Shown piece by piece: positions 10,263-56,199 of a stretch of 64,000 nt of DNA. Each line of letters begins with the position of its first letter. The stretch's first letter is position 1. Made by a program: the position numbers and the translations under genes. The notes beneath the pieces were generated by a model. It was given only the letters and a program-made list of their open reading frames with translations. It was not told where the DNA came from and did not search any database. Source of the stretch: an uncultured Saccharofermentans sp. (GTDB taxonomy: Bacteria > Bacillota > Clostridia > Saccharofermentanales > UBA5734); NCBI GenBank assembly GCA_963675845.1, contig OY776634.1, positions 1,952,633-2,016,632 on the forward strand, read 5' to 3'.

Positions 10263-10381
10263 GTGCAGCGTTTGGGTCAATCGCGTACAGATTCCTTTTC
10301 ATAAGAGACAATACAGGGCAAGGTCTTGCTACAGGCAAGACCTTGCCCTCATTCTATATCGAATCAATGCAGATACAAAAA

Positions 10382-20081: not shown

Positions 20082-20103
20082 GAAAAAGGAGGAAACAGCT
20101 TTA

Positions 20104-21000: not shown

Positions 21001-21035
21001 CTAGATTTCTGAATATTAATAGAAATCTAGTTTAG
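21001..21035 (+). terminator. Rho-independent terminator after the immunity gene
   Basis: Perfect 10-bp stem CTAGATTTCT/AGAAATCTAG with a 10-nt loop, followed by TTTAG. Confidence 0.55.
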
Positions 21036-21078
21036 ATGTTTTGAATATGCCTATTTTGCACATTATTCATGATAGCTA

Positions 21079-21343
21079 GTAAGCGTCCGAAGAACGACGC
21101 CTTAACAAGCCGGAACAGATGAAATCGATTAGCGACATCGTTCCTTCATAAAAGCGCTCCAAGTCATCAAGCTTTTCATCATATCCGGGTTTGTCCGGAA
21201 ATTACTTCCAGGTATAAGCATCAATAGGAACTGCAGGTATTTGAACGGATCCAGACCATTGGCCTGGGCCGTTTCAACAAGAGAATAAACGCATGCGCTG
21301 GCGTTGGCGCCTTTCGGAGATCCCGCGAACAGCCAGTTTTTAC
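21079..21343 (-). mobile_element. IS66-family element remnant 1 (terminal repeat plus last ~70 codons of transposase)
   Basis: Family-typical end GTAAGCGTCCG at 21079. Minus-strand reading of 21338-21129 gives NWLFAGSPKGANASACVYSLVETAQANGLDPFKYL...*, an IS66 transposase C-terminus. Cut at 21343/21344. Confidence 0.65.
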
Positions 21344-21944
21344 GTAAGCGTCAAAGAATCACATCTTGAAATTATTTTTTGACCCTGAGCTCAACCGGCA
21401 GGCTGCTCGACCAGGGCATCAGAGCGTCCCAATCCTCTGTGTTTGCAAATCCGCCGACAGGCAGCCGCTGCAACAGATACACCAGGTAATCATAGATTTT
21501 GAGCTTGTTCTCTTTGGCCGTGACAATCAGGCTATTAAGCATGGCGCTCGAGCGCGCACCGCGCTGCGTATTCGAGAATAGCCATGCCTTGCGACCAAGT
21601 ACAAATAGTTTCACTGAGCGTTCCGCCCGATTGTTATCTATCTCGCAAGCAGGGTCGTTCAGGTAAACGCGCAGTTTTTTCTCTTCGTTTAAACTGTATT
21701 GCATCGCTTCACGAAGTTTGCCGGTACAGCGGTTCTTGTTGGTTTTGCAGAACTCGAAATACTGGTCACAGACCGCCAAGCTTTTGGTTTGTCGAGCGGT
21801 CTGTTTCTGGCAGAATAGAAACCAGCCACTGTGGAAGTTAAGAAATCTGCCAGATGGAGAATAAAAACTCCACTGCCGCGCCCCCGAATCATGTATCCTT
21901 TTAGTTAGCCTAAAAACTGAAAGGAAGATCGGAGATGTTGACAA
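21344..21944 (-). mobile_element. IS66-family element remnant 2 (terminal repeat plus C-terminal part of transposase), inserted into remnant 1
   Basis: GTAAGCGTCAAAG end at 21344. ORF 21372-21944 contains EIDNNRAERSVKLFVLGRKAWLFSNTQRGARSSAMLNSLIVTAKENKL. The N-terminal two-thirds of a normal IS66 transposase is absent. The right boundary with the IS21 remnant is unresolved (about 21800-21934). Confidence 0.65.
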
Positions 21945-22690
21945 TGGAGCATATCTATCATATCAGGTATGAGTATTTCGAGAAAGGGAAAAGCAAACGG
22001 GAAATTTCCAGGACGACCGGGCATGCCCGTGAAACGGTAGCAAAGTATGTCGAGCAGGAGGATTTCAGCTTGCCCCAGCCCGTCAAGCGCAAACGCCGGA
22101 GCAAGACGGACCAGTACCGAGACCAGGTTTGGGAGTGGCTCATGGCAGACGAAACGGCACCGCGCAAGCAGCGACACAGTGCCATGTGCGTTTACAGACG
22201 GCTGAAGAAGCAGGCCGCGGCTGACAATAAGCCTTTCGATGTTTCGGACCGCGCGATTCGTGATCTGGTAGCGGATCTAAGGCTTGAGCTGGGTCAGCAA
22301 AAGCAGGCATCACTGCCGCTGCTGCATCCGGCGGGCGAAGCACAGGTGGACTTTGGCACCACCTACTTCTATGAAAAGGGCAGCTATTACGAAGGCAGCC
22401 ACCTGGCGCTGACGTTGCCACATTCGGATGCAAAATTCACTCAGCTCTTCAAAGGTGAGAACTTCGAATGGCTGGCGCAGGGCCTGAAGAATATCTTTGA
22501 GCACATTGGATATGTACCGACGGTTATCCGGTTTGATAATATGTCGACTGCAGTCAAGGCAATTAAGGCGCAGGGAGACCGTGAAATCACTGATAACTTC
22601 CGGCGCCTGCAGTGCCATTATGGATTTGACAGTAATTTTTGCAACCCGGCATCGGGGCATGAGAAAGGGTCGGTGGAGAACTCCTTAGAA
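21935..22690 (+). mobile_element. IS21-family istA transposase, 3-prime truncated
   Basis: HTH GKSKREISRTTGHARETVAKYV. DDE region GEAQVDFG..VIRFDNMSTAV..NPASGHEKGSVEN. Family-like sequence stops near 22690; the rest of the ORF reads into the tail of the MFS gene. No istB follows. Confidence 0.7.
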
Positions 22691-38180: not shown

Positions 38181-39593
38181 TCACCGGTCTTGCTGGCTGT
38201 TGGCGTGCTTTCTGCGCCCTTTCAGCCAAAACCAAACGATCAGGCCTGCCAGGACAAGCAGCCCGATGCCCGCCAGAAGGCCGGGCAGCCATCGGCTGGT
38301 GCCGGCACCATCGTTAGAATCGACTATTGTTGTGCTTCCCTGAGTCGGAGTGAAATCGGATTGAGCGGCCTCACAGGCTTCGATGGCCTGCTGCTCGGTG
38401 TCGAACATGGCGCCGCCGCGCTGTTCGCATTCGGAAATGGGAACGAAATCGACCTGGCCGTTGGCGCAGCACCAGACTTCATCTTCGGGCGCCTGTTCAC
38501 AGGCTTCGATGGCCTGCTGCTCGGTGTCGAACATGGCGCCGCCGCGCTGCTCACATTCGGAAATGGGAACGAAATCGACCTGGCCGTTGGCGCAGCACCA
38601 GACTTCTTCTTCGGGCATCTGTTCACAGGCTTCGATGGCCTGCTGCTCGGTGTCGAACATGGCGCCGCCGCGCTGTTCGCACTCGGAGATGGGAACGAAA
38701 TCGACCTGGCCGTTGGCGCAGCACCAGACTTCTTCCTCATATCCTGTGGTTGTTTCAGCCGGCGGCGATGGATCGGTCTCGCTCGCGCAGGTTGTGACGA
38801 CCTGCAGGCAATTGTTGCTTTCGTTGGACTCCTGGATGATGTTGTCATCCTCATCTAAATCACTCGTATCGGCACACACCCGGATTGTCATGTTGCAGAC
38901 TAGATCGATGCCCTGGCTGCCGACATCAAATTCACCTGAATACTGCTGGCCAGGTGCCAGTGTAGTCGGAACAGTATGCATGAAAGATTGCGCGTTGCCA
39001 TTTTGGATGTAGATGTACTGAACAGAAAACCCGGCTGCGGCTGATTCCTGACCGGCATTTTTGACTGTGAAGCTGATGATATCGGCAGTCAAATCATACC
39101 CGATGCCAGAAATGATCAGATCCGGCAGATCCGAAGCTGTTGTTGCAGAAGGGTCCCGATCCCAGAACTTGTTGCCTGTTTTGACCAGGCTGTCAATCGG
39201 GGCTTGATACTCAATCCAGTTCGGGTTTCTGACGATGCCATCGACAGTGGTCGCGCCGACCGATTCATAACCGGTTGGATCAGTCTCAGCAATCCGGTAA
39301 TAGTCATATAGGGTTGTGACCTCGAGACCAAACCAGCCGCTGGAATTAGTTGTCGTGCTGCCGATCAGGGATCCGCTGTCCGGATACGGGTTATGGGCTC
39401 CGAAAACCGAAACGCTGACACCCGCCAGCGGCTGGCTTTCATCGCCGACTTCGCCCGCATAAACACGACCAGACAATGTGTAACTGGCTACGGCAGAAGT
39501 TCCTTGAATTGGATAGGCGCAAACAGCGGCAAAGATGATTGCCAGAATCAAGACAGCGGTTGTTTTGAAACGTGTTGTGCTCTTGTGCTTCAT
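38181..39593 (-). CDS. Secreted, C-terminally anchored surface protein: Cna-B/SdrD-like domain, CARDB domain, 3 Cys-rich repeats
   Basis: Start moved to MKHKSTTRFKTTAVLILAIIFAAV (ATG 39593). SGRVYAG..LAGVSVSVFG..SSGWFGL. CARDB block PDLIISG..FTVKNAG..ESNESNNC. Three copies of EVWCCANGQVDFVPISECEQRGGAMFDTEQQAIEACE. C-terminal TM followed by KGRRKH. Confidence 0.8.
   Translation of the reverse strand: MKHKSTTRFKTTAVLILAIIFAAVCAYPIQGTSAVASYTLSGRVYAGEVGDESQPLAGVSVSVFGAHNPYPDSGSLIGSTTTNSSGWFGLEVTTLYDYYRIAETDPTGYESVGATTVDGIVRNPNWIEYQAPIDSLVKTGNKFWDRDPSATTASDLPDLIISGIGYDLTADIISFTVKNAGQESAAAGFSVQYIYIQNGNAQSFMHTVPTTLAPGQQYSGEFDVGSQGIDLVCNMTIRVCADTSDLDEDDNIIQESNESNNCLQVVTTCASETDPSPPAETTTGYEEEVWCCANGQVDFVPISECEQRGGAMFDTEQQAIEACEQMPEEEVWCCANGQVDFVPISECEQRGGAMFDTEQQAIEACEQAPEDEVWCCANGQVDFVPISECEQRGGAMFDTEQQAIEACEAAQSDFTPTQGSTTIVDSNDGAGTSRWLPGLLAGIGLLVLAGLIVWFWLKGRRKHANSQQDR
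38372..38749 (-). repeat. Three tandem 126-nt coding repeats (42-aa Cys-rich module)
   Basis: Units start at 38372, 38498 and 38624 on the plus strand. There are only a handful of differences between units, and the core differences are synonymous: ISECEQ is encoded three different ways. Confidence 0.95.
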
Positions 39594-39783
39594 AGGACAT
39601 TTCCCATTCAAAAAACATGATTGCACAACCTGCTCTACACAATTCAATTATAACACGAACACGTGGAATTGATACTGAACCTGTTGGCTTGAAATGGCTG
39701 GGCAGGCCGGTGCCTTTGGCCGGAGCAGTAAAACCCGGAGCCATTGCGCGAATTGAAGGGAAATGGTCAATACAAAACCAATA

Positions 39784-41276: not shown

Positions 41277-41942
41277 ATGTATTGTGCCATTATCGGTGAT
41301 ATCAAGGCATCCAGAAGCATTGAAAGACGACATGAGCTTCAAATCAAGTTGAATCAGGTGTTAGTTCAAATCAATGCGTCGTATGCCGATGAAATCAAGT
41401 CACCCTTTCAGATCACGCTGGGCGATGAGTTTCAGGGGCTTCTGGTTCGGCCGGATGTCGTGATGGATATCGTTGAGCGAATTAAATTTCAGCTGTATCC
41501 GCATGCTGTTCGATTTGGTGTTGGCCTTGGTGAAATGTACACCGAGGTACACGAAATGTCTGCATTGGGATCGGATGGTCCGGCGTATTATGCTGCGCGT
41601 GACGCGATCGAGCAGCTTAAGAAGGCCAGGCACCGATACCAGCAGGTTCAATCAGACGTCTGCATACTCAGTCAAAACCAGCAGGATGCCTGGCTTCAGA
41701 TCATCAACTCATCGCTCGCCGTATGCTATTACCTGGCATCCGGATGGTCAGATAAACAACGTGAGATAATTGAACTGGTGATGCTGCAGGATCTAACGCA
41801 AAACGAGGCAGCTGAACGCATCGGTATTGATCCATCGGCAGCCAACCGTCGTCTGGCGGCTTCCGGGTATATCTATTATCTGAAAACCAGGGAGTCAATC
41901 AACACAGCGCTTCAAGAGCTATGGAGGAGTATGACACCATGA
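41277..41942 (+). CDS. SatD family protein
   Basis: MYCAIIGDIKASRSI...ITLGDEFQGLL N-terminal domain and a C-terminal HTH LTQNEAAERIGIDPSAANRRL. Paired with a DUF3307 gene, as SatD genes typically are. Confidence 0.65.
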   Translation: MYCAIIGDIKASRSIERRHELQIKLNQVLVQINASYADEIKSPFQITLGDEFQGLLVRPDVVMDIVERIKFQLYPHAVRFGVGLGEMYTEVHEMSALGSDGPAYYAARDAIEQLKKARHRYQQVQSDVCILSQNQQDAWLQIINSSLAVCYYLASGWSDKQREIIELVMLQDLTQNEAAERIGIDPSAANRRLAASGYIYYLKTRESINTALQELWRSMTP

Positions 41943-42676
41943 CAGACGTCTTCATTATTCTATTCGCAGCCCATTTAGTGGGGGATTTCTATTGCCAAAG
42001 CAAAGGCCTGTCATTGAAAAAGACCAACCAATACCGCTATGTTCTGTTGCATGGCCTATACTATGCCATCGCTGCCCTGGTTTTTCTGGTTTTCCAGCCA
42101 ACCTTGGCGGTGTTGCTGTTGAGCCTGGGGTTCGCCGGGTTTCACCTGATCATTGATACCGGGAAGCTTTTCATTCTAAAAAGCACAAAGCTGAAAGGCA
42201 TCAACCCAGGCAAATTCATGTATGCCGGAGACCAGATCCTCCATGTTGCCAGTCTAGTCTTGCTAGCTGCCGTGTTGTTTGACACTTTGCAGGTCAGACC
42301 GCTGTTCGCGAACTTTCTGATGCGCTACGATTGGTCAATGACCACAGTTGTCCGCTTGATCCTGTTGTTTCTATTGATTTTCAAACCGGCCAATGTGACT
42401 TTCCGAAATCTGTTCGGCCAGCTCAAGCCTGAAGACGATTTAGCGAAAGCCGAACAGGACAGACGCGCCGGTGCGGTTATTGGCAATATGGAGCGCCTTC
42501 TGATCGCGCTGCTGATGCTGCTTGGTCAGTACACCGCGATTGGCCTGGTCCTGACCGGTAAATCAATCGCTCGATACAAGAAGATTGCCGACGAGAAATC
42601 ATTTGCCGAGTACTACCTGATCGGAACATTTTACAGCCTGATTGTTGTCATCGGACCCTTCATGATTTTGTGTTAG
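41939..42676 (+). CDS. DUF3307 domain membrane protein
   Basis: ATGA overlap with the satD-like stop. FIILFAAHLVGDFYCQS opening motif. Multi-TM. Confidence 0.65.
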   Translation: MTDVFIILFAAHLVGDFYCQSKGLSLKKTNQYRYVLLHGLYYAIAALVFLVFQPTLAVLLLSLGFAGFHLIIDTGKLFILKSTKLKGINPGKFMYAGDQILHVASLVLLAAVLFDTLQVRPLFANFLMRYDWSMTTVVRLILLFLLIFKPANVTFRNLFGQLKPEDDLAKAEQDRRAGAVIGNMERLLIALLMLLGQYTAIGLVLTGKSIARYKKIADEKSFAEYYLIGTFYSLIVVIGPFMILC

Positions 42677-42786
42677 CTGCTCATCTAGAGCGATCTGTCT
42701 CTGCGATCGTTTGACACTTTTTCGATTACGGGCGTATGATGAAAACATCGATCATTCGCCTGTTTGTCAATAGGGGGTTTTTGCTT

Positions 42787-43290
42787 ATGTCAGAAGAATC
42801 GCTGAGCGAGATGCGCCGCAAGAACACTGAGGAAAAACAAGCCGAGATGCCGTCCCTGATCAACATTATCACAGCCCTGGCCCAGCGGGACTGCTTCCCG
42901 TCGGACAAGCTGGTTCGCGTCCTGGACGGACACGACAATTTGCTGAGCTATCAGTTTGAATTTGCCAATCCCTGGTACGTCGCGCAACCTGTCTCGACGA
43001 TCGAGAGTCTGAGGATCGAGATCGACGACCAGCCGGTTGGAACATGCGACCTGGCCCTGGTCATCCGAGACCAGATTGTCCCGATTGACGTTGCCAGGAC
43101 GTTTCATGAACTCTGGTGGGGGTTTGCCGAGATCGCCCGGGTTGAAATCAAGGCTGGCGTCGTTCGTGAGCTTGCACCAGGATCCTGTGTTGACCTCAAG
43201 CTCGTTCTGGACATGAGGACAACGATCAATTACGGGCTCAAGGACAATCTGGCCCAATACGTCCTGAATCATAGACTGGAGGTCGAATAA
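42787..43290 (+). CDS. Divergent C-glycoside deglycosidase beta-subunit-like protein (pair 1)
   Basis: 167 aa from ATG 42787. SYQFEFANPWYVAQPVSTIESLRIEIDDQPV aligns by eye with the YYRG.PLS...VDG block of the two other small subunits. The stop lies 1 nt before the TIM-barrel gene. Confidence 0.45.
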   Translation: MSEESLSEMRRKNTEEKQAEMPSLINIITALAQRDCFPSDKLVRVLDGHDNLLSYQFEFANPWYVAQPVSTIESLRIEIDDQPVGTCDLALVIRDQIVPIDVARTFHELWWGFAEIARVEIKAGVVRELAPGSCVDLKLVLDMRTTINYGLKDNLAQYVLNHRLEVE

Positions 43291-43291
43291 C

Positions 43292-44089
43292 ATGAAAATC
43301 GGAATCAGCCTTTATACTTATGGCGCCGACCTCCATGCCCGGAAGATGACGGTTCGCCAGGCTATTGAACACGCGGCTGAGATCGGCTGTGACGGGGTTG
43401 AAGTCATCGGCGACCAGCATCTGGCAGGTTGGCCGAATCCGTCTCCGGCGGATCTTTTATCCTTTCGGGAATTGATTGAATCCAAGGGGCTGGAAGTCTC
43501 CTGCTTCAGCACTTATCTGGCCGATATGGTCCGCTCGGACCGGCATCTGACCACGGACGAACTGATTTATGAGGCCCAAAAGCATATCGTGATGGCCAGC
43601 CAGCTGGGCGCCAAAATCTGCCGCCCGATCTACAGCGCAGAATCCAAAGATGACCTGTTGCGGGTCATTGAGCCCTGCGTACCGCTTTTGGCTAAGCTGG
43701 GCGTGATCTGGGCGATTGAGGTTCACGCGCCGTACCCTCCGGCATTTTTCAATGAACTGATCCGGCAGATCGATTCACCGCATGTCAAGCTCCTGCCGGA
43801 CTTTTCCTGCTGGCAGACGATGGGGCTGCCTACCGAGTACTCCAAAAACGATATCCAGAGCTTTATTGATATCCTGCCCTACGCGGTCTACTGTCATGGC
43901 AAGGCGCACATGTTTGACGAGAACGGTGAAGAGCCCGGCACCCCGTACCGGGAACTGCTGGGCGCCCTCAAGGACAATGACTTCAGCGGTTATGTGGTCT
44001 CGGAGTACGAGGGCTGGCTGATGGGCTATCTCGACAGCCGGACGATTGCCAAAACCCATGTCGATCTGCTTCGCAAGTATGGCAAGTAG
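43292..44089 (+). CDS. Sugar phosphate isomerase/epimerase (xylose-isomerase-like TIM barrel), short deglycosidase alpha-like (pair 1)
   Basis: KIGISLYTYG, IEVHAPY, LLPDFSCW, VYCHGKAHMF, FSGYVVSEYEGW. 265 aa; lacks the ~90-aa insertion present in the other two paralogs. Confidence 0.75.
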   Translation: MKIGISLYTYGADLHARKMTVRQAIEHAAEIGCDGVEVIGDQHLAGWPNPSPADLLSFRELIESKGLEVSCFSTYLADMVRSDRHLTTDELIYEAQKHIVMASQLGAKICRPIYSAESKDDLLRVIEPCVPLLAKLGVIWAIEVHAPYPPAFFNELIRQIDSPHVKLLPDFSCWQTMGLPTEYSKNDIQSFIDILPYAVYCHGKAHMFDENGEEPGTPYRELLGALKDNDFSGYVVSEYEGWLMGYLDSRTIAKTHVDLLRKYGK

Positions 44090-44148
44090 GGTAGAAGGAT
44101 CAAGTTCTGAATCATTGCATAACAACACCACAAGAGGGGGAACGCCCC

Positions 44149-44562
44149 ATGCATTTGATGAAATATGTTCTGTGTGAAGACGGGTTTGAGAACCGGATGG
44201 CTGACGGCAAAGCTGTAGGGTTCAACGTCCGGATGAGAATCCCCTATTACCGGGGCGTGCCGCTCTCAATGGTCGAAGACATCCTGATTAAGGTTGACGG
44301 TGTGAGCTACACCGGCGCCGACCTCCTGTTTGAGGTGCGCGACGGCATATTCTCGATCGCCGAGATGCCAACCGTGGTCCGGCACCGCTGGCTTTACGGC
44401 GAAAAAGCAGTGGTCCGGGTCAACAAGCCCGGCGGTCTTGCGCCAGGCAGCCACCATGTCGAGGCATATGCCAAGCTGCGGATCAGCTATTTGCCGATCC
44501 AGGGCTTGGCCGGCGGCTTCGCTGATCTGGATATTCTCCAGAAGACCGTGACAGGAGAGTAA
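44149..44562 (+). CDS. C-glycoside deglycosidase beta-subunit-like protein (DUF6379-type, pair 2)
   Basis: CEDGFENRMADGKAVGFNVRMRIPYYRGVPLSMVEDILIKVDGVSY...HRWLYGEKAVVRV. 137 aa. Ends 4 nt before the TIM-barrel gene. Confidence 0.6.
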   Translation: MHLMKYVLCEDGFENRMADGKAVGFNVRMRIPYYRGVPLSMVEDILIKVDGVSYTGADLLFEVRDGIFSIAEMPTVVRHRWLYGEKAVVRVNKPGGLAPGSHHVEAYAKLRISYLPIQGLAGGFADLDILQKTVTGE

Positions 44563-44566
44563 GGCT

Positions 44567-45634
44567 ATGGCGATTAAACTTGGCGCATCATCATACAGCT
44601 GGCAGCTGTCTTATTATCTGGGTCAAATGACCCTGGAAGACTGCATCGCGCATCTTTCGAGCATCGGCGGGACGGGCTTTGAGCTGATTCCGGAACAAAT
44701 GCTGCCCGGCGACAATTTCATGCGACTGGACCCGGGCTTCGTCGAGACCTGGTTCGAATGGATGGAAAAATACCGGATGGCACCGACCTGCCTCGATCAT
44801 TTTGACGATTTCAATTTATACAAAAACCGCACCCTGACCTGTCAGGAGCAGCTTGACCTTTCGGAAAACTATCTGCTGATTGCCCAAAAACTTGGATTCG
44901 GCAGCATTCGGGTCTTGAGTACCACGCCATTTGATGTGCTGGAAAAAATGATCCCCATGGCCGAGCACTACGGCGTCAAACTCGGGCTGGAAATCCATGC
45001 CCCGCTGTCAATGAAATCGGACTGGGCGCGGAAGTGGCAGGAGATGATCGCCCGGACCGGTACAAAATTTGCCGGATTTATTCCGGACTTCGGCATTTTC
45101 TGCAAGCAGCCGCCCCTGATCTTCACCAACAACCTGATCAACCAGGGCGCGCGCCGCGAGATCGTCGACTATATTGTCGACTGCTATTCGAAAATTCAGC
45201 TTGAACGCATCCGTTCCAGCGATGGCGCGAAAAGTGTCAATTCACTGATGGACATCAGCGAAGACATTCTGGCGCTGGAGGAAGATGCAAGGGCAAAAGG
45301 CGCCACGGATCTGGAGCTCTCGATCTTCAGGATCCGCAACATCTACGACAACCCGCAGTGGATCGTCGATGTCCTGCCGTTGATCGTGCATGTACACGCC
45401 AAGTTCTATAACATGGTTGACAACGGCTCAGGCGGCTACACCGACCCCAGCGTGGACACCGAACGGGTTGTCCGGCTGCTCAGGGACCATGGTTATGACG
45501 GCTATCTCTCCAGCGAATATGAAGGGCCATTCTATTCGCTGCTGTTCGGCGGACACGACTCGCTCGATGCCCTCGAGGAAAAAGAAGCGGTCAGACGCCA
45601 CCACGCGATGCTCAGATCGGTGCTCGAAGAATAA
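44567..45634 (+). CDS. Xylose-isomerase-like TIM-barrel protein, C-glycoside deglycosidase alpha-subunit-like (pair 2)
   Basis: AIKLGASSYSWQ, LEIHAPL, FIPDFGIF, VHVHAKFYNM, YDGYLSSEYEGP. 355 aa. Confidence 0.7.
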   Translation: MAIKLGASSYSWQLSYYLGQMTLEDCIAHLSSIGGTGFELIPEQMLPGDNFMRLDPGFVETWFEWMEKYRMAPTCLDHFDDFNLYKNRTLTCQEQLDLSENYLLIAQKLGFGSIRVLSTTPFDVLEKMIPMAEHYGVKLGLEIHAPLSMKSDWARKWQEMIARTGTKFAGFIPDFGIFCKQPPLIFTNNLINQGARREIVDYIVDCYSKIQLERIRSSDGAKSVNSLMDISEDILALEEDARAKGATDLELSIFRIRNIYDNPQWIVDVLPLIVHVHAKFYNMVDNGSGGYTDPSVDTERVVRLLRDHGYDGYLSSEYEGPFYSLLFGGHDSLDALEEKEAVRRHHAMLRSVLEE

Positions 45635-45754
45635 CTGAAGGATTGTGCATAAAACCGTCTGTGCATGTGCGGCCGGTCTGTTTCGCAAGTCTAGTTTTGC
45701 TGGTTTCCCCAGTTGTCGGCGGAACAACTGTCGCGGCTCAAGTTACAGCATTCT

Positions 45755-45955
45755 ATGGATATTACTAACGTCTTGAATCAGGTTCTGGTCCTCTTGCTGC
45801 TGATCGCAGTCGGATTTGCCTGCCAGAAGTTTTACATCATCAACCGGCAGACCCGAAAAGGCATCGCGGATCTTCTGCTCTATGTCGCCATCCCGGCTGC
45901 GACGATCCATGCTTTCAACAGGTCCTTCCCGCAGGAGTCCTGCTCGATGGCCTAG
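45755..45955 (+). pseudogene. N-terminal remnant of an AEC (auxin efflux carrier) family transporter
   Basis: MDITNVLNQVLVLLLLIAVGFACQKFYIINRQTRKGIADLLLYVAIPAATIHAF matches the first ~60 aa of AEC permeases, then terminates. Full-length members are ~300 aa. Confidence 0.5.
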
Positions 45956-46394: not shown

Positions 46395-47393
46395 ATGAAG
46401 GTCCTGCTGATCGGGGCAGATGGGTTTTTAGGGTCACATATACTGAGGCGCCTGCTGGATCAGGATTATTGTGTTCGTGCGTTCCTGCAAGCGCATCGCG
46501 ATCACGCGACGATTGAAGGGCTGGATTATGAGCCGTTCTTGGGGGATATCTTGAACAGCAAGGATGTCGAAGACGCCTTGGCTGGCTGCGATTATGTGAT
46601 CAACACGGCTGCGGTAACCGATGTCTGGCCGAGTAGAAACGAGGCCAGCTGGCAGATCAACTACAACGCCGTCAAAATCTTGAGCGACGCCGTACTGGCA
46701 TCGGATGTCCAGAAGTTCATCCATGTCGGTACCGCCAACTCGTTTGGCTACGGCTCAAAAGCATCGCCGGGGGATGAGCTGACACCCTATAATTTCGCGA
46801 AATATGGCATGGATTATATGGATTCCAAAAAGGCAGCCCAGGACTTTCTGCTCCAGGCCTGCCGGGACGATCAGCTGCCGGTGGTCATCATCAACCCGTC
46901 GTTCATGATCGGGGAGTACGACTCAAAGCCCGGATCCGGGGCGATGGTGCTGGCAGTACTTCAGGAGCGCCTGCCGTTTTGCTCGCGCGGTGGACGGTGC
47001 GTGACCTATGTCGGGGATGTCGCAGCCGCCACGGTCAATGCGCTGGACAAGGGTCGGATCGGCGAATGCTATATTACAGGCGGCACCAACCTCAGCTATG
47101 CTGAATTCTTCCGGATCATTGCCGACACCGCGGGCGTCCATGCGCCCCAGCAAAGCCTTCCCGCGCCCCTGCTCATGGCGTTTGCCGGCCTGGCGCAGGC
47201 GTTGGGCCGTCTGCTGCGCAAACCGCCGATGCTGTCTGTCGACATGGCCAGGATGTCGCTGGACGGCCATTACTTTTCCGCCGCGAAGGCCATCCGGGAG
47301 CTGGACCTTACCCAAACTGACATTGAAACAGCCGTCCGGCGCACAGTCGATTGGTTTGAGGCCAATGGATACTGGCAGAGGAGGAAAGCATGA
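46395..47393 (+). CDS. NAD(P)-dependent extended SDR (epimerase/dehydratase or 3-beta-HSD/dihydroflavonol-reductase-like)
   Basis: Rossmann motif LLIGADGFLGSHILRRLL. Catalytic YMDSKKAA (YxxxK). 332 aa. Confidence 0.8.
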   Translation: MKVLLIGADGFLGSHILRRLLDQDYCVRAFLQAHRDHATIEGLDYEPFLGDILNSKDVEDALAGCDYVINTAAVTDVWPSRNEASWQINYNAVKILSDAVLASDVQKFIHVGTANSFGYGSKASPGDELTPYNFAKYGMDYMDSKKAAQDFLLQACRDDQLPVVIINPSFMIGEYDSKPGSGAMVLAVLQERLPFCSRGGRCVTYVGDVAAATVNALDKGRIGECYITGGTNLSYAEFFRIIADTAGVHAPQQSLPAPLLMAFAGLAQALGRLLRKPPMLSVDMARMSLDGHYFSAAKAIRELDLTQTDIETAVRRTVDWFEANGYWQRRKA

Positions 47394-48190
47394 GACTCCA
47401 AAACAAGATCATCCTCATCACCGGCGGCGGCAAGGGGATCGGCCGGGAGACGGCCAAATTGCTGGCGTCTTTCGGCAATACGGTTGTCATCACCGGCCGA
47501 AGCGAGGTTCCTTTGCAGGACACTGTGAGGGCGATTGAAGCCAGCGGCCAAAAGGCCGTCTATTACACGGGCGATGTAACGGACCCGCAGGACTGTGACC
47601 GGATTATCCGGTCGGTGACCGAACAGTTTGGCCGGCTGGATATTTTGGTCAACAATGCCGGCATGAGCATGCGCGGCCTGTTTCAGGATACATCGCTCGA
47701 GCTGTTTCGCAAGATTGTGGACATCAACCTGATGGGTGCGGTCAACATGAGCAAGTGCGCGCTTGAACAGATCATCCGGGCCAAAGGCAGCATTTTGTTC
47801 GTCTCCAGCCTGTCCGGACTGAAAGGTCTGCCGGGTATTGCGCCGTACAGCACAGCCAAGATGGCGCTGACCGGATTTTCCGATGCGCTTCGCTGCGAAC
47901 TTAATCAATACGGCGTGCACATTGGTATCGTGTATGTGGGCTTTACGCAAAACGACAGCGGCAAGAAGGTCTTCACCGGGGATGGCCAGCTGGTGGATAT
48001 CGCCCGCAAGGCGAACCACGCCACCCAGTCCGATGTGGCTCGGTCGATTTTGAAATGCCTGGTCAAGCGGCGCGACTCGCTTGTCCTGACCTGCCTGGGC
48101 CGTTGGACGAAGCTGATGGTTCAGTTCCTGCCGGGTCTGTCGAACAAGATTCTCAAGAAGCATGCCGTCCGAAAATACCGGGACATCTGA
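47390..48190 (+). CDS. Classical short-chain dehydrogenase/reductase (SDR)
   Basis: ITGGGKGIGRET, NNAG, YSTAKMAL. ATGA overlap with the previous SDR gene. Confidence 0.88.
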   Translation: MRLQNKIILITGGGKGIGRETAKLLASFGNTVVITGRSEVPLQDTVRAIEASGQKAVYYTGDVTDPQDCDRIIRSVTEQFGRLDILVNNAGMSMRGLFQDTSLELFRKIVDINLMGAVNMSKCALEQIIRAKGSILFVSSLSGLKGLPGIAPYSTAKMALTGFSDALRCELNQYGVHIGIVYVGFTQNDSGKKVFTGDGQLVDIARKANHATQSDVARSILKCLVKRRDSLVLTCLGRWTKLMVQFLPGLSNKILKKHAVRKYRDI

Positions 48191-48203
48191 GCGGGAGGCT
48201 GAT

Positions 48204-48917
48204 ATGACAGACGCCATGAATGACATTCTACGTGACGATTCCCTGACTTTGTTCATTTTCACCATGGGATATCTGACCTATTTCTTTTCCCGCGACAGCC
48301 GACTGGTCCAGAAGCTGGCCGGCCGTCTGGGCGATACACACCGGCGCAAAGTCTACGGTATCTACCTGCCGCGCCTGCTGGGGTTTTGCCTGCTCGGCGT
48401 TGTCCCATGGGGTTTATCGGTTCTGGTCTATGCATCACCGCCTGCCCAGTACGGCCTGAGCCTGCCGCGAGGCGAGCATGCGCTGCTGGTCTCACTGGGA
48501 TCAATCGCGATCTTCGCGCTGGCGTGCAGCCTGCGCAGCGGCAAGCGAATTGACCAATCCATCTATCCACAGGTTAAATTGTCCGATTGGACGATCAAAG
48601 ACCATCTGCTGAACGCGCTGACCTGGAGCCTTTATCTTCTCGGCTATGAGTTTATGCTGCGCGGGCTGCTGTTTTTCAGCTGCCTTGCCGCCTTTGGTCT
48701 GGTTCCCGCAATTGCGATCAACAGCACCGTCTACAGCCTGATCCACATCTTCAAGGGCCGACAGGAGGCCTTCGGCGCCTTCTTTCTGGGGATCGTGCTC
48801 TGTCTGGTCGCGTATTATACAAATTCCTTCGTCATTGCATTGGTCTTGCATGTCATCCTCGCGGTCAGCAATGACTTGAAAGCGATCAGGATCAAGCAAA
48901 GCCAAAGCGCTGTTTAG
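48204..48917 (+). CDS. CPBP family intramembrane glutamic endopeptidase (CAAX protease-like)
   Basis: ATG 48204 follows GGGAGG. Motifs GYEFMLRGLLF, YSLIHIFKG, LVLHVILAVSND. Confidence 0.8.
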   Translation: MTDAMNDILRDDSLTLFIFTMGYLTYFFSRDSRLVQKLAGRLGDTHRRKVYGIYLPRLLGFCLLGVVPWGLSVLVYASPPAQYGLSLPRGEHALLVSLGSIAIFALACSLRSGKRIDQSIYPQVKLSDWTIKDHLLNALTWSLYLLGYEFMLRGLLFFSCLAAFGLVPAIAINSTVYSLIHIFKGRQEAFGAFFLGIVLCLVAYYTNSFVIALVLHVILAVSNDLKAIRIKQSQSAV

Positions 48918-49921: not shown

Positions 49922-50899
49922 CTAAGCGCGTGCTTGGTAATGCCGGCATTCATCCTGGCACCACTGCTTTCGTTTTTCAGTTCGCGGATCGTCAGGGTCG
50001 CCAAAGATTACAGGGAAGAGCATGTAGTTTCCGTTTTGCCCATACGTATCAATGCAGCGGCGAACCTCGGCCCGGATTTCTGCCTCGGTCGCGTCGACTT
50101 GAGCGGCGCGGCCGTAGGAATCCCATCCGCCATGGATGCACAGCTTGTCGCCGTATTGCCGATTGATGCCGACCAGGTCATTCATCGACTGGGCGGTCTG
50201 CCAGACACTGGCGCCGGTCGCGATGATGTCTGGAATAATTGCATCAACCTTGCCGCAGACATGGTGTTCCGCGATGACGCCTTTGGAGACCGCATGCCGG
50301 TGAAGCTTTTTCTCGTGCGGCCAGATTATTTCACGATAAAGATCCGGAGAAAAGAAGAGACCGTTTGACGACGCGACATCGTCGCCATAGACAATGATAT
50401 CCGGCTGGTAGTGTTCAACGGCTTTGTCGATGATCCTGACCATGAAGTCGGTATAAGCTGTGAAAAAATGATTGACCTCAGCCGGGTTGTCAACCATCGC
50501 GATCAGGGCCTCACAAGTCCCCATCAGGGCTTCAAGCCGATTGAAGCAGCCCGTCAATGAAATGAATACCGTCAGTTTATTGACCCGGTCAAGGTGAGCT
50601 GTGTCCTGGCTAGCCGAGCCTGCCCAGTTCATTTGATCCAGATCCGGGAATCGGATGATGTCACGCCAGGATTCGATATCTTCCAGGATATGCTCATTGG
50701 GATCATGGATGGTCATGAACCCGGTATCACGGGTCACCAGCCAGTTGCTGCCGAAAAGATCCCGGCCGCCTTTGCCGCGCTCTCCCTGATCCCTGATCAG
50801 GGAGGTTCCTACCGGATCGTAGGCCTCCAGAAAACAGGGGGTCCAGTATGGCTTTTGGTGATGAATGGCCAGCAGGGCGTTTTCTCTTGGTGTGATCAT
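49922..50899 (-). CDS. Uroporphyrinogen decarboxylase (URO-D) superfamily protein, MtaA/CmuA-like
   Basis: MITPRENALLAIHHQKPYWTP..., HHVCGKVDAIIPDIIATGASVWQ. Preferred start is ATG 50899 (AAGGAAG upstream, 1 nt after the TIM-barrel stop). The ORF-track start at 50920 would overlap the upstream gene by 20 nt. Confidence 0.65.
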   Translation of the reverse strand: MITPRENALLAIHHQKPYWTPCFLEAYDPVGTSLIRDQGERGKGGRDLFGSNWLVTRDTGFMTIHDPNEHILEDIESWRDIIRFPDLDQMNWAGSASQDTAHLDRVNKLTVFISLTGCFNRLEALMGTCEALIAMVDNPAEVNHFFTAYTDFMVRIIDKAVEHYQPDIIVYGDDVASSNGLFFSPDLYREIIWPHEKKLHRHAVSKGVIAEHHVCGKVDAIIPDIIATGASVWQTAQSMNDLVGINRQYGDKLCIHGGWDSYGRAAQVDATEAEIRAEVRRCIDTYGQNGNYMLFPVIFGDPDDPRTEKRKQWCQDECRHYQARA

Positions 50900-50900
50900 C

Positions 50901-51968
50901 TTAATCTTCCTTTGCATCAAGGCATTGGCGCATCAGGACGTGCTGTTTGCGCACCAGTTCGATCTCGTCGACCCAGCCGGCGTCATTCATCCGTCTGTTG
51001 CCTTCGAATTCTGAACAGACATATCCATGATAACCGCCATCTTTCAGAGCTTTAAACAGTTCAGGGTAGTCAATGTTGTCCACCTGGCCGTCTTGATCGA
51101 TATCGTAGAATTTGGCATGGATGTAAACCAGCTTCGAGGCATATTCCTTCAGTGTCTGATAAGAGTCCGGCTTGTCGGAGGCCAGCTGGCGGGCACAAAA
51201 CTTGAGGTCAAGCTCCGTCGCACCCATTTGCACAAGCTCCGCCCGAAGCTTCTCCTTGTCTGAGCGACGGCCGGCCAAATATGCGTTGCGCTCGCTATCC
51301 CGAAGGTGGCGCATGATTTTCTCATTGGCGCCGCTGCGCACAGCCTGACCGAGATCAGCCTCGCTGAGACAATATTCGTAGCAGCCGAAATCAGACTGCA
51401 AGCCGATGAAGTCCTGATAGCCCATTCGTTCGGCGGATTCCAGATAGGGGAGCTGACAGGCCGCATCGATTGATGTCGGCGAGTGGCACTCCATCGCTAA
51501 TATAACATTGTGCTCGGCAGCGACCGGCAGCAGTTTCTCAACAATGGGCAACGTCGCTAGATGATAATCAAGACCCATGCGCCGCATGGCATCGCCCATG
51601 ATCGCGTCATGCATCAGGCGGATGTGCGAACAGCCCAGCCGAGCTGCCGTCTTGATATACAGCACGCTGCGTTCATACAATTCATCGTCTGACAGGTATT
51701 TGTTCTTCCACATGTGCCGGTCGGCGAAATGATCCAGACAGACCGGGTTGACGCCGTAACGGGTCATTAAGCCGTGCCAGTGATCGACGAAGCGATCTGA
51801 AATGTATGGCCATTCGGGCATCATCATTTCCGGGAAAACCTCAATGCCCTCAGCCCCAGCGCCGGCCGCGGCCGCGATGCAGCCTTCCAGGTCATAGCGC
51901 TTGAAGTAATAATTGTCCTGATAGCTGTAGAGCGAAACCCCCAGCTTGATGTCATGTTGAGTTTTCAA
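50901..51968 (-). CDS. Xylose-isomerase-like TIM-barrel protein, C-glycoside deglycosidase alpha-subunit-like (pair 3)
   Basis: IKLGVSLYSYQ, MECHSPT, LQSDFGCY, VYIHAKFYDI, YHGYVCSEFEGN. Preferred start is TTG 51968, 8 nt after GGGAGGA, giving 355 aa like pair 2. The track start at 51995 is also TTG. Confidence 0.7.
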   Translation of the reverse strand: MKTQHDIKLGVSLYSYQDNYYFKRYDLEGCIAAAAGAGAEGIEVFPEMMMPEWPYISDRFVDHWHGLMTRYGVNPVCLDHFADRHMWKNKYLSDDELYERSVLYIKTAARLGCSHIRLMHDAIMGDAMRRMGLDYHLATLPIVEKLLPVAAEHNVILAMECHSPTSIDAACQLPYLESAERMGYQDFIGLQSDFGCYEYCLSEADLGQAVRSGANEKIMRHLRDSERNAYLAGRRSDKEKLRAELVQMGATELDLKFCARQLASDKPDSYQTLKEYASKLVYIHAKFYDIDQDGQVDNIDYPELFKALKDGGYHGYVCSEFEGNRRMNDAGWVDEIELVRKQHVLMRQCLDAKED

Positions 51969-51987
51969 TGTAAAATCCTCCCGAATC

Positions 51988-52383
51988 TCAAGCAAATGTT
52001 AATGTTTTTTCACAAACTGAAACCATAGTCGGTGTATAAGACCTGCGTGTTCCCAGGGTCAGCTTGACCCGGTGCCGTCCCTGTTCGATCCCGCCGTCCT
52101 TGTTGACGACAATCCGAAGATCGTCACCAAACTGCCAGTAGACATCTGTCGGGAAGAAGTCCTTAAGGATATCGGTGTAGGGGTATTCCCGGTCCCCGGT
52201 CTGGATCGTCATCTGTTTTGGATCAACTGATTCGCCGTCAACGTCCAGTGCGATGCTGTCGATACAGCTTAGCGGCAGACCGCGATAGTAGTTAATCCGG
52301 ATGTTGACGCAATAGCCGACTTTGCGACCCTGGTCCCAGATGCTGCGGCAGTCGCGTTCGGTTAGAATGTGTTTGTCGTACAT
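51988..52383 (-). CDS. C-glycoside deglycosidase beta-subunit-like protein (DUF6379-type, pair 3)
   Basis: Start moved to ATG 52383, which follows GGAGG. GRKVGYCVNIRINYYRGLPLSCIDSIALDVDGESV...DVYWQFGDDLRIVV. 131 aa. Confidence 0.6.
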   Translation of the reverse strand: MYDKHILTERDCRSIWDQGRKVGYCVNIRINYYRGLPLSCIDSIALDVDGESVDPKQMTIQTGDREYPYTDILKDFFPTDVYWQFGDDLRIVVNKDGGIEQGRHRVKLTLGTRRSYTPTMVSVCEKTLTFA

Positions 52384-52587: not shown

Positions 52588-53388
52588 ATGGATGCGCTGA
52601 CACGCCTGATCAGTTTCTATAACAACAGTTCTGCCAACGACATTTATCGCCAGATCGCTATCAATGTGCTGAGAAATATCCAAGCCTTGCCGAATGCCAG
52701 CTCATACGAGATGGCAAAAATCTGTTTTTCGGCCCCATCGACCTTGCGTCGACTGGCAACCAAGCTGGGATACAAGTCCTACTCAGCGTTCAAGGCCGAC
52801 CTGAGCTGGTCGCTTGACAACTATCGTTTTTTGCACGCCTACCGACCGCTGGAATCAAACACAAAGCAGGATACTGTCACTGATTTGCTGCGGTTCATTG
52901 CCCGGCTGGCCGATGAGCTTGAGCAAAACCTGGACCGGGAGTTGCTCAGCCGGGTCGTTACGGACATTCGCAGCAAAAAGAAGATAGCCTTTTTTGTATC
53001 CGCGGTAACTTCCCAGATTTCCAGACTAGAGCTCGATCTGCTGCTCGACGGGCACGAGGTGGCGTTATATACCGAACTGCACGACCAGATGACCGGTATG
53101 GACTTGTTGGACGGCCAGTCGCTGGCCATTTTGATCAAGCCGGAGGTTCCGGCTTCCGGACATGTCCGGGAACTGGCCAAAATCGCCAAGGCAAAAGGCG
53201 CCCGCACCTTGGTGATCAGCAATTCCAGCAGCTATGCAGCCAATGACTCTATGGATTATGTCCTCAATTATTCGGGATCGGCATCCCTGATCGATATCTA
53301 TGCCATCGACATGATCGTTTCCGCGATTGTCACGAAGCACCAGGAGATGATTTTTCGGTCGGACAATCGCCCTTGGCCGGCAGATTGA
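52588..53388 (+). CDS. MurR/RpiR family transcriptional regulator (HTH + SIS domain)
   Basis: Start moved to MDALTRLISF (ATG 52588). HTH SSYEMAKICFSAPSTLRRLATKLGYKSYSAFK, plus a C-terminal SIS-like domain. Divergent from the pair-3 operon. Confidence 0.8.
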   Translation: MDALTRLISFYNNSSANDIYRQIAINVLRNIQALPNASSYEMAKICFSAPSTLRRLATKLGYKSYSAFKADLSWSLDNYRFLHAYRPLESNTKQDTVTDLLRFIARLADELEQNLDRELLSRVVTDIRSKKKIAFFVSAVTSQISRLELDLLLDGHEVALYTELHDQMTGMDLLDGQSLAILIKPEVPASGHVRELAKIAKAKGARTLVISNSSSYAANDSMDYVLNYSGSASLIDIYAIDMIVSAIVTKHQEMIFRSDNRPWPAD

Positions 53389-54242: not shown

Positions 54243-54530
54243 TTAGCGGCGGCCCTGAAAGCAGTCGCGGCAGTAGACCGGACGGTCACCGCTCGGCTGG
54301 AAAGGAACCTGGGTCTCTTTACCGCATTCAGCGCAAATCGCATCGTACATGACGCGGTCGCTTCTACGCTGTCCGCCCTGGTCACCACGAGATCTTTTTC
54401 TGGCGGCACGGCAATCCGGGCAGCGGGTCGGCTCGTTGGTGAAGCCTTTTTCACGGTAGAAATCCTGTTCGCTTTCAGTGAAGACGAAGCTGGTACCGCA
54501 GTCTTTGCAGTTTAGATTCTTGTCTGACAT
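54243..54530 (-). CDS. Zinc-ribbon protein with duplicated CxxC-x17-CxxC modules
   Basis: CKDCGTSF...CPDCRAARK and CAECGKETQVPF...YCRDCF. Confidence 0.8.
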   Translation of the reverse strand: MSDKNLNCKDCGTSFVFTESEQDFYREKGFTNEPTRCPDCRAARKRSRGDQGGQRRSDRVMYDAICAECGKETQVPFQPSGDRPVYCRDCFQGRR

Positions 54531-54753: not shown

Positions 54754-54829
54754 TGGTTGCGGAGGGAGGATTCGAACCTCCGACCTTCGGGTTATGAGCC
54801 CGACAAGCTACCAACTGCTCCACTCCGCG
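54754..54829 (-). tRNA. Initiator tRNA-fMet (anticodon CAU), CCA encoded
   Basis: The reverse complement is CGCGGAGTGGAGCAGTTGGTAGCTTGTCGGGCTCATAACCCGAAGGTCGGAGGTTCGAATCCTCCCTCCGCAACCA. It has a C1:A72 mismatch and three G-C pairs closing the anticodon stem, both initiator hallmarks. Confidence 0.95.
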
Positions 54830-54869
54830 GTATAACTTTTCTCCTTGACGCTCACGTGTTGTGCACTTT

Positions 54870-54956
54870 TGGTGCTCGTGGCCGGACTTGAACCGGCACG
54901 GATTTTACTCCGACGGATTTTAAGTCCGTTGCGTCTGCCTGTTTCGCCACACGAGC
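54870..54956 (-). tRNA. tRNA-Leu (anticodon UAA), long variable arm, CCA encoded
   Basis: The reverse complement is GCTCGTGTGGCGAAACAGGCAGACGCAACGGACTTAAAATCCGTCGGAGTAAAATCCGTGCCGGTTCAAGTCCGGCCACGAGCACCA. 7-bp acceptor stem and anticodon loop CTTAAAA. Confidence 0.93.
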
Positions 54957-55020: not shown

Positions 55021-56199
55021 TCAAAGATTTCCAGGTTCTTTTTCAGGCCTTGCAAACAGGATGTTGACCAGCCCCAAAACGAAGAGCAGCGCGGTGACAC
55101 CGGCCAGAAACGTCATGCCGACCAGGATGCCGCCGGTGTTCGAAAATACCCCGATCAGGTAGGGGACGATTGTCGCGCCCAGGCCGCCCAGAGACATCAT
55201 CAGGCCGCTGACCACGCTGGATTCGATCAGCAGGCCGCTGGCGTTGGCCAGCACCATGCCATAAAAGGATGCCAGGGCAAGACCGATAACCACTACGGAC
55301 ACGGACAGGATGATCGGTATGCCTGTGCCGATCAGGACAATGGCTCCGATCAGGGCGAAAAGACCTTCCATTAATAGAAAGGTTTGCTTATTGAGCTTTT
55401 TGGATAAAACTGCGACGGCCAGCCTGCCGATAATGAAACAGACCCAGAACGCGGACAGCAGGAACTGGGCGTCCGTATCCAGGTAGCCGCGGGCGTCTTT
55501 AAGGTAGCTGACCAGGAAAGAGTTGAAGCCGGTTTCCGTCCCCACATAAACGAACAGCAGAGACATGTAGAGATAGAATTTCCAGTTTTTCAGAAATTTG
55601 AGATTGGCCGGCCGCTTTTGATGCGCCTTGTTTTGGTGGATCTCCGGAATCGGCATCAGGAGAATGACGCCGATCAGGAGAAATGACATCACGGCCAATA
55701 TGCCGGTCGGCAGCTGCCAGGACAAGCCAAAGCTCAGGAACAGGCCGACCAGCAGCGGGGCCAGGAAGGCTCCAAAAGAATAACTGGAGTGCGTCAGCAA
55801 TATTTTGCCGCTGCTGCCCCCGGATACCAGGGCAACCAGGAAGTTGACCAGGTTATTGAACGCGCCCCAGCCCAAACCGGTCAAAAAGAGCAGCGCCTGC
55901 AGCGCCCAGAGCGGCGGCATCAGTGTCAGTCCGGCATAGCCGACCAGGTAAAAGACGGCTGACAGGGTCATGGTGAGTTTTCGGCCGATCTTATTTGAAA
56001 TCGGACCGCTCAGATAATTGGACAGGACACTGCCGGCCGCTAAAAAACTCAGCAGCAGACCGCCCTGGTCGTATCGCAGGCTGTAGTGCTCCATCAGGTA
56101 GGTCAGGATCGAACTGGTCATCAGGACAATGGCGCCGGTGACGAGAAATATGTACATGCAACCAAACATGAAAAATTTGTTGCCGGGTTTGACTTTCAT
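55021..56199 (-). CDS. MFS transporter
   Basis: 392 aa, ~12 TMs, loop LSGPISNKIGRKLTM. GGAGGGG RBS. Confidence 0.85.
   Translation of the reverse strand: MKVKPGNKFFMFGCMYIFLVTGAIVLMTSSILTYLMEHYSLRYDQGGLLLSFLAAGSVLSNYLSGPISNKIGRKLTMTLSAVFYLVGYAGLTLMPPLWALQALLFLTGLGWGAFNNLVNFLVALVSGGSSGKILLTHSSYSFGAFLAPLLVGLFLSFGLSWQLPTGILAVMSFLLIGVILLMPIPEIHQNKAHQKRPANLKFLKNWKFYLYMSLLFVYVGTETGFNSFLVSYLKDARGYLDTDAQFLLSAFWVCFIIGRLAVAVLSKKLNKQTFLLMEGLFALIGAIVLIGTGIPIILSVSVVVIGLALASFYGMVLANASGLLIESSVVSGLMMSLGGLGATIVPYLIGVFSNTGGILVGMTFLAGVTALLFVLGLVNILFARPEKEPGNL

Follow-up and report, generated by a model that had tools for sequence, protein, structure and literature searches.

The window analysed here, a 64,000-nt stretch of contig OY776634.1 from an uncultured Saccharofermentans sp., carries three gene pairs (A, B and C) that very probably encode three heteromeric, Mn2+-type 3-keto-glycoside beta-eliminases of the C-glycoside deglycosidase (CGD) family. 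C-glycosides such as puerarin, orientin, vitexin, mangiferin and carminic acid resist ordinary glycosidases, and to our knowledge CGD lyases, few of which have been characterised, are the sole enzymes that cut the C-C bond of these compounds. The three pairs add divergent members to a known enzyme family and are not a new system. Their genes, and a candidate promoter for the first unit, are as follows.

42711-42740, plus strand: promoter candidate TTGACA-18-TATGAT for the A1-A2-B1-B2 unit, sigma-70-like, 11/12 consensus matches
42787-43290, plus strand: A1, 167 aa, divergent CGD beta subunit
43292-44089, plus strand: A2, 265 aa, lid-less CGD alpha subunit, xylose-isomerase-like TIM barrel
44149-44562, plus strand: B1, 137 aa, canonical CGD beta subunit
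44567-45634, plus strand: B2, 355 aa, CGD alpha subunit with lid insertion
51988-52383, minus strand: C1, 131 aa, canonical CGD beta subunit
50901-51968, minus strand: C2, 355 aa from a TTG start, CGD alpha subunit with lid; a longer reading frame extends to 51995

An earlier note on this DNA had reported the order small open reading frame (ORF), barrel, small ORF, barrel for the first four genes, with 1-4 nt spacers within each pair; the ORF coordinates agree, the spacers being 1 nt in pair A and 4 nt in pair B. The third pair, which it placed at 50901-52383, is indeed present on the minus strand (beta 51988-52383, alpha ORF 50901-51995), with a 19-nt spacer. The genes of each pair are tightly coupled on one strand, every gene has its own ribosome-binding site, and A2 and B1 are 59 nt apart. 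The pairs appear to form two operons lying 5.3 kb apart, namely A1-A2-B1-B2 on the plus strand and C1-C2 plus a UroD-like gene on the minus strand, the latter facing a divergent RpiR regulator. A1 could also be read from 42736, in a longer ORF, but 42787 is the better start because an AGGGGG ribosome-binding site precedes it, a promoter-like site lies upstream and its homologues are 167 aa long; the promoter candidate, recognised by consensus match only, is 47 nt upstream of the A1 ATG. A GGAGGA site stands upstream of the C1 ATG, and the TTG at 51968 is the likely start of C2 because a GGGAGGA site precedes it and a 355-aa gene is called in a 99%-identical strain. Overlapping ORFs, among them one at 42790-43293 on the opposite strand, were taken as shadows of the coding frames.

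Family membership and active sites of the three pairs

The three barrels matched Pfam AP_endonuc_2 (PF01261) with E-values of 6e-11 to 3e-22 (80 bits for A2), and NCBIfam held no model matching any of the three barrels or three small subunits. In the PDB, all sequence matches of A2, B2 and C2 at E<=1e-11 were CGD alpha subunits: DaCGD (8qvc), DgpC (strain PUE; 7bvr, 7xrf), DgpC1 (P581a; 9m3b), DgpC2 (W974-1; 9m3a), AgCarB2 (7dnm), DfgA (7bvs) and the fused Microbacterium testaceum CGD (8qrz). The sole non-CGD barrel, 4ovx, was far weaker (E 5e-7 and 1e-3) and appeared for A2 and C2. B2 matched DaCGD alpha at 3.8e-56 (39% identity, calculated, like the other identities, from the printed alignments), followed by DgpC1 (8e-42), DgpC (2e-36) and AgCarB2 (2e-33); C2 matched DaCGD alpha at 1.7e-56 (35% identity) and DgpC at 1e-32 (28% identity), and A2 matched DgpC at 1e-28 and DfgA at 8e-26. 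A Foldseek search with the AlphaFold2 model of A2 (predicted local distance difference test, pLDDT, 92.8) returned CGD alpha chains as its top 16 hits, with template modelling (TM) scores of 0.85-0.89. The model superposed best on those DgpC chains whose lid is disordered in cryo-electron microscopy and on lid-less DfgA; ketose epimerases stood further down the list, at E about 1e-12 to 1e-15.

In AgCGD2, the Mn2+ ligands are E147, D179, H269, K271 and E305, with H149 proposed as the base and E307 supporting it via a water (PMC8563793), and alanine mutants of PuCGD and MiCGD at E147, H149, D179, H269, K271, E305 and E307 (AgCGD2 numbering) lose activity (PMC8563793). The corresponding residues of the window's barrels, and the distance from the Asp to the His of the HxK motif, are given below.

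A2: E143, H145, D170, H202, K204, E238, E240; Asp to His, 32 residues
B2: E142, H144, D174, H277, K279, E317, E319; Asp to His, 103 residues
C2 (long-ORF numbering): E169, H171, D202, H293, K295, E329, E331; Asp to His, 91 residues

Alignment to DgpC and DaCGD showed that the ExH / D / HxK / ExE residues needed for C-C cleavage are kept in all three barrels. In the alignments, the ExH and ExE motifs of A2 coincide with H143 and E301 of DgpC, and those of B2 and C2 are aligned likewise; the seven catalytic and metal residues are moreover invariant across 25 aligned A2 homologues. The blocks KIG/KLG-x-S-x-Y[ST][YW], E[IV]HAP, [IL]PDF, H[AG]K and GY..SEYEG, which the earlier note had singled out, were all found in A2 and B2, and C2 carries the motifs ECH, SDF, HAK and EFE. 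Since the Asp-to-His distance is 103 and 91 residues in B2 and C2 versus 32 in A2, the former two have a lid insertion and A2 has none. The proposal that the barrels are CGD alpha subunits is thus borne out by their PDB matches, retained catalytic residues and CGDB-family partners, and the E-values put the Pfam and PDB matches far outside what chance would give.

The small ORFs also belong to the beta-subunit family, so the check that the earlier note had set for them came out in favour of its reading. B1, which carries FNVRMRIPYYRGVPLSMVEDILIKVDGVSY as had been noted, matched Pfam CGDB (PF19906, C-glycoside deglycosidase beta subunit, DUF6379) with 123.6 bits (E=4e-36), and C1 matched it with 97.7 bits (E=5e-28), both above the cut-off. 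The PDB sequence matches of these two were CGD beta chains only: DgpB1 of P581a (2e-17, 36% identity) and DgpB (8e-16, 32% identity) for B1, and DaCGD beta (1.4e-14, 36% identity) and DgpB (8e-14) for C1. A1 found DaCGD beta at E 2e-3 in the same search, and its sub-threshold Pfam score notwithstanding, profile alignment and comparison of its predicted fold identify it as a CGD beta subunit. In hhalign against ten canonical beta subunits from the window and related loci, alignments of three and seven A1-type sequences reached probabilities of 98.0% (E 1.8e-13) and 98.8% (E 9e-17). The AlphaFold2 model of A1 (pLDDT 69, predicted TM score 0.62, from a shallow alignment) starts with a helix at residues 3-33 and continues as a beta-sandwich, and all of its top 17 Foldseek matches in the PDB were CGD beta chains (E 7e-7 to 4e-4; the next match was at 1.7e-2). 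In addition, seven of seven members of the long-beta group match PF19906, the best at 8e-11.

The pairs are deeply divergent, with the alphas 24-30% and the betas 22-33% identical among themselves, and so are ancient paralogues or separate acquisitions, which is consistent with different specificities. They are also rare. HMMER with B2 against 1.84 billion representatives of 50%-identity clusters returned 586 proteins at E<=1e-3, of which 316 reached E<=1e-10 and 88 reached E<=1e-30; the top hit was 66% identical and the next at most 42%. Among GTDB species representatives the relatives of B2 were 37% identical or less, metagenomes added a single relative, at 62% and on a contig of 2 kb without useful context, and a look-up of the exact B2 sequence gave no match. 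The closest database relatives with a source label came from Clostridiaceae or Clostridiales metagenome-assembled genomes. All six CGD genes are intact in both this genome and the 99%-identical strain described below, between which the alphas show 14 synonymous and 2 non-synonymous codon changes and the betas 7 and 6.

Pair A and comparison with characterised systems

The earlier note had described the alphas as of a ~350-aa type, which fits B2 and C2 (355 aa, with lid) but not A2, which has 265 aa and belongs to an atypical lid-less subclade. In the database clusters, about 40 relatives of A2 were found, 43-83% identical to it and nearly all of 264-287 aa, and the associated long-beta group shares the invariant motifs RD, NPWY (replacing PYYRG), ST, RxQ, ELWW, DMR and YG. 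In every context examined, a 155-175-aa CGDB gene precedes the short alpha and a glycoside-oxidase candidate is nearby, as in the following loci.

L009: TetR, major facilitator superfamily (MFS) and Gfo/Idh/MocA genes
L012: TetR gene, two Gfo/Idh/MocA genes and an MFS gene
L011: two tandem pairs, two Gfo/Idh/MocA genes, LacI gene and an ATP-binding cassette (ABC) sugar transporter
L010 (Virgisporangium): glucose-methanol-choline (GMC) oxidoreductase, ROK and ABC sugar transporter genes

Because of these recurring contexts and invariant residues, pair A is read as a conserved lid-less CGD variant and not as a decayed copy. No member of the subclade has apparently been characterised in the literature. 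The lid is not universal in the CGD family, as PuCGD and AgCGD2 have a four-helix lid and EuCGD has none. A tentative suggestion, which we would hold with low confidence, is that pair A represents a CGD subclade of Firmicutes and Actinobacteria in which a 265-277-aa alpha is combined with a beta whose N-terminal helix and NPWY/ELWW/DMRT motifs replace the lid, maybe for another substrate class, and that the UroD/MtaA-like protein of the pair-C operon performs an undescribed third step, either O-demethylation of methoxylated C-glycosides or product processing.

Among the solved systems, DaCGD of Deinococcus aerius TR0125 (8qvc, 8qvd, 8umc) is the best match for B2, C2 and C1 and the best structural match for A1. 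It has the same layout of a lidded alpha and a beta of ~125 aa and the same motifs EIHAP / PDxG / HAKFY / SEYEG, but identity is below 40% and a 16-residue insertion in C2 is missing from DaCGD; in the Deinococcus system a GMC flavin oxidase acts first. DgpB-DgpC of the human gut strain PUE (PuCGD; 7bvr, 7xrf, 7drd) is the reference two-subunit, Mn2+-dependent C-C lyase acting after oxidation by DgpA, and DgpC is the best match of A2 by both sequence (1e-28) and fold (TM 0.89). Identity to this enzyme is nevertheless only 22-28% for the alphas and about 32% for beta (B1), A2 does not have the DgpC lid, and dgpA lies within the same operon in strain PUE, in contrast to the window pairs, which have no oxidase nearby. 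DfgA-DfgB of Eubacterium cellulosolvens (EuCGD; 7bvs, 7dre) contains the only characterised lid-less alpha (290 aa), which A2 matches at 8e-26 with TM 0.85-0.89; A2 is 25 residues shorter and about 26% identical, and the beta of pair A differs in forming a distinct subclade with the N-terminal helix and NPWY, ELWW and DMRT. CarB-CarC and AgCGD2 of soil Actinobacteria (7dnm, 7dnn) share the fold and metal site but are the most distant solved relatives of all three pairs, form alpha-beta heterodimers and have the GMC oxidase CarA as partner.

Multiple pairs per genome are not without precedent. Catenibacillus scindens and C. decagia have 4-6 divergent dgpBC pairs per genome with dgpA elsewhere, which the authors regarded as the basis for a broad substrate range (PMC11170127). 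Unlike the window (GC content about 53%), these genomes have a GC content of 43-47%, and the pairs are not orthologous as far as testable. No relevant paper turned up in literature searches on W974-1 and P581a, the strains behind 9m3a and 9m3b. CGD gene order also varies, with alpha preceding beta in Cytophagales, Maribacter and some Clostridia loci (L004, L006, L014, L025). Many relatives (P0130, P0131, P0143, P0145 and others), at 450-540 aa and with an alpha domain that begins around residue 145, are presumably fused in beta-alpha order, as is the enzyme of Microbacterium testaceum.

Neighbouring genes and a second CGD region

The genes most closely associated with the two operons are listed here, together with relatives of the UroD-like gene in other loci.

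49922-50899, minus strand: UroD/MtaA-superfamily gene, 325 aa, starting 1 nt after the C2 stop
52588-53388, plus strand: RpiR/MurR-type regulator, 266 aa, likely start 52588 (longest ORF from 52387), divergent from pair C
45713-45955, plus strand: short ORF downstream of B2, 80 aa
L013, 10001-10978; L025, 8001-8993; L014, 10001-10978: further members of the family of the window's UroD-like gene (49922-50899, minus strand)

The UroD-like gene is probably the third gene of the pair-C operon and translationally coupled to it, judging from its position. Its product matched Pfam URO-D with 52.8 bits and NCBIfam MtaA-type models far under their cut-offs, and phmmer against the PDB gave no match. A profile of 25 homologues aligned weakly with MtaA (4ay7, E 7e-4), with the HxCG motif in register; within the family H213 is invariant and C215 is kept in >=90% of sequences. 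Among the members of the UroD superfamily are the corrinoid methyltransferases serving as O-, S- and halogen-demethylases (PMC10418091). In three of seven independent UroD-like contexts sampled (window, L013 and L025) a CGD pair lies within 1 kb; L014 has one within 6 kb, and L015, L023 and L024 have none. Because CGD genes are rare, this association is unlikely to be due to chance. Identity to the window's UroD-like protein is 83% for L013 and 56% for L025, both from other organisms. Pair C and the L013 pair are not orthologous (the L013 alpha is 34-35% identical to B2 and C2; its beta shows 53% identity with B1 and 31% with C1), and in L025 the order is reversed, alpha before beta. No corrinoid protein is encoded in the window, but one adjoins a 74%-identical UroD-like paralogue in L014.

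The regulator matched Pfam HTH_6 and, weakly, NCBIfam HexR/MurR models, and a 266-aa gene is also called in L022, the matching locus of the 99%-identical strain; RpiR genes flank CGD pairs in L003 and L013 too. The 80-aa ORF downstream of B2 continues in no frame. Judged by eye it resembles the N-terminus of an auxin-efflux-carrier (AEC)-type permease, and it is probably what is left of a transporter gene formerly linked to pair B. An Rfam scan found two tRNAs only, and no riboswitch near the operons.

Further evidence came from a contig of 3,206,367 bp (ENA ERZ21831104), which has 99.05% DNA identity to window positions 33290-54060 in the same gene order and which we read as a strain of the same species. 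At about 1.366-1.404 Mb, about 1 Mb from the matching locus, this contig carries a second region (L014 1-20978 and L009 1-20504) with three further CGD pairs, one in alpha-then-beta order and one paralogous to pair A (83% identity in alpha, 60% in beta). A 378-aa Gfo/Idh/MocA protein of this region had DgpA (5e-49; 7xr9) and DgpA1 of W974-1 (7e-47) as its best PDB matches, and its gene lies beside the pair A paralogue together with MFS and TetR genes. The region also encodes a corrinoid-binding protein, a PucR-type regulator, the 74%-identical UroD-like paralogue, a second URO-D protein, CobW, a multicopper oxidase and an Oxidored_FMN protein, and looks like a larger polyphenol-processing island. 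On the evidence of this strain, the species has six CGD pairs or more and, in addition, an oxidase of DgpA-like type, a situation also described for Catenibacillus (PMC11170127).

Other genes in the surroundings are recorded as separate observations. SatD-family and DUF3307 genes (41277-42676, plus strand; 22-nt overlap) lie directly upstream of pair A; they are conserved in the sister strain, and nothing evident links them to the CGD genes. On the plus strand after pair B come an extended short-chain dehydrogenase/reductase (SDR) of HpnA/3-beta-HSD-like type (46395-47393), a classical SDR overlapping it by 4 nt (47390-48190), and a membrane protease of CPBP/Rce1-like type (48162-48917). In L022 a 1-nt indel splits the classical SDR. 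A four-Cys zinc-ribbon-like ORF of 95 aa (54243-54530, minus strand) and the adjacent genes for tRNA-Met(CAT) and tRNA-Leu(TAA) (54754-54956, minus strand) stand between the RpiR gene and an MFS transporter gene (55021-56199). Farther away, the gene at 38181-39647 (minus strand), whose product matches Pfam CARDB and is probably located at the surface or in the membrane, contains three tandem 126-nt repeats at 38371-38748 that are 90-100% identical, each corresponding to a 42-aa Cys-rich unit (EEVWCCANGQVDFVPISECEQRGG...). A low-GC block at about 10000-22000 (38-44% versus about 54% elsewhere) contains a 2615-aa ORF at 12234-20081 and has an IS66 transposase fragment (21372-21944) at its end; this island was probably gained by horizontal transfer.

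Proposed chemistry, alternative readings and significance

The mechanism is carried over from the solved homologues, and by analogy with these we infer complex formation, metal use, chemistry and substrates. In the first step, a separate NAD-dependent, DgpA-type Gfo/Idh/MocA oxidoreductase encoded outside the window would oxidise the 3''-hydroxyl of the glucosyl group. The alpha TIM barrel would then hold the 3-keto sugar at a metal bound by Glu/Asp/His/Lys/Glu while the His of ExH takes H-2'', and beta-elimination would free the aglycone and 1,5-anhydro-D-erythro-hex-1-en-3-ulose. Each pair would by homology form an alpha-beta unit with its active site at the subunit interface, in which the beta-sandwich subunit shuts the aglycone pocket and, jointly with the alpha lid, may determine substrate specificity. 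Given their deep divergence, the three pairs most likely differ in the glycosides that they accept. PuCGD cleaves 3-keto O- and C-glucosides alike, C-C cleavage needing extra aglycone positioning (PMC10628242); therefore, preference for C- or O-glycosides and the aglycones are not readable from sequence, and '3-keto-glycoside beta-eliminases of the CGD family' is the safe description.

Several points weigh against this assignment. A1 scored 25.7 bits against PF19906, under the cut-off of 27.6, and has Val in place of the invariant Arg of PYYRG. A2 is without a lid, and lid removal from PuCGD abolished activity; the lid-less EuCGD (DfgA-DfgB) is nevertheless active and cleaves C-glycosides. Identity to any structurally solved enzyme is at most 39% for the alphas and 36% for the betas, and because it is so low, substrates cannot be inferred from it. 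Among window ORFs of at least 150 aa there is no Gfo/Idh/MocA or GMC oxidoreductase and no B12-binding or corrinoid protein, the 64 kb hold no genes for the released sugar, and a search of sequencing runs identified none as RNA and so gave no expression evidence. A co-located oxidase is not required, as the dgpA genes of Catenibacillus sit apart from its pairs. The earlier note had gone further and suggested a dedicated catabolic locus. Two CGD operons, a regulator and a candidate accessory gene speak for this, but with no oxidase, intact adjacent transporter or released-sugar genes, and with genes of no shown link separating the two operons, the term overstates what the window holds.

It is highly unlikely that the barrels are ordinary xylose-isomerase-like isomerases, epimerases or dehydratases and the small ORFs unrelated accessory proteins. 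The barrels' Pfam label is merely AP_endonuc_2, no NCBIfam model applies and ketose 3-epimerases do appear lower in the Foldseek list; however, the top 16 structural and all strong sequence matches are CGD alphas, generic epimerases are 8 to 11 orders of magnitude weaker, each barrel is tightly coupled to a CGDB-family partner, and related pairs adjoin glycoside 3-oxidoreductases. Within the CGD family, it is conceivable, though we doubt it, that at least one pair, most plausibly the atypical pair A, acts in the cell on 3-keto O-glycosides as a generalist or O-specific enzyme, as has been reported of DfgCD from E. cellulosolvens and C. scindens. The dual substrate range of PuCGD, with its extra demand on aglycone positioning for C-C cleavage (PMC10628242), the restriction of the homologous pair DfgCD to the deglycosylation of O-glucosides (PMC11170127), and the missing lid and divergent beta of pair A all agree with such a role. 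Set against it, lid-less DfgA-DfgB does cleave C-glycosides, pair A keeps all catalytic residues including the His/Glu pair, and no sequence marker for O- versus C-specificity is known.

The two SDRs downstream of pair B (46395-48190) could in principle serve as the sugar 3-oxidase, in which case an oxidase of a new type would complete the pathway within the window. Both share the strand of B2, about 760 nt downstream of it, one of the two belongs to the extended SDRs of sugar epimerase/3-beta-HSD type, and the window holds no other oxidoreductase. We regard this as very improbable, however. A 1-nt indel splits the classical SDR in the 99%-identical strain, where all CGD genes are intact, so a role of this SDR in the pathway is disfavoured. 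Moreover, no SDR adjoins a CGD pair in the loci with gene tables (L009-L015 and L025), the window SDRs have no relative beside the pairs in L001-L008, where Gfo/Idh/MocA or GMC genes are found instead, and a DgpA-like gene is present elsewhere in the species. The SDRs were thus rejected as a replacement oxidase on account of the sister-strain frameshift and the lack of any SDR beside CGD pairs in the related loci examined.

Read as three CGD-family beta-eliminases, the window pairs leave the accepted picture of the family unchanged. They are candidates for a wider substrate range, for studies of how the beta subunit and the lid shape specificity, and for biocatalytic deglycosylation. The parts most worth experiments are pair A and the CGD-coupled UroD-like gene, the latter, as a recurring neighbour, being a testable lead to an extra pathway step.

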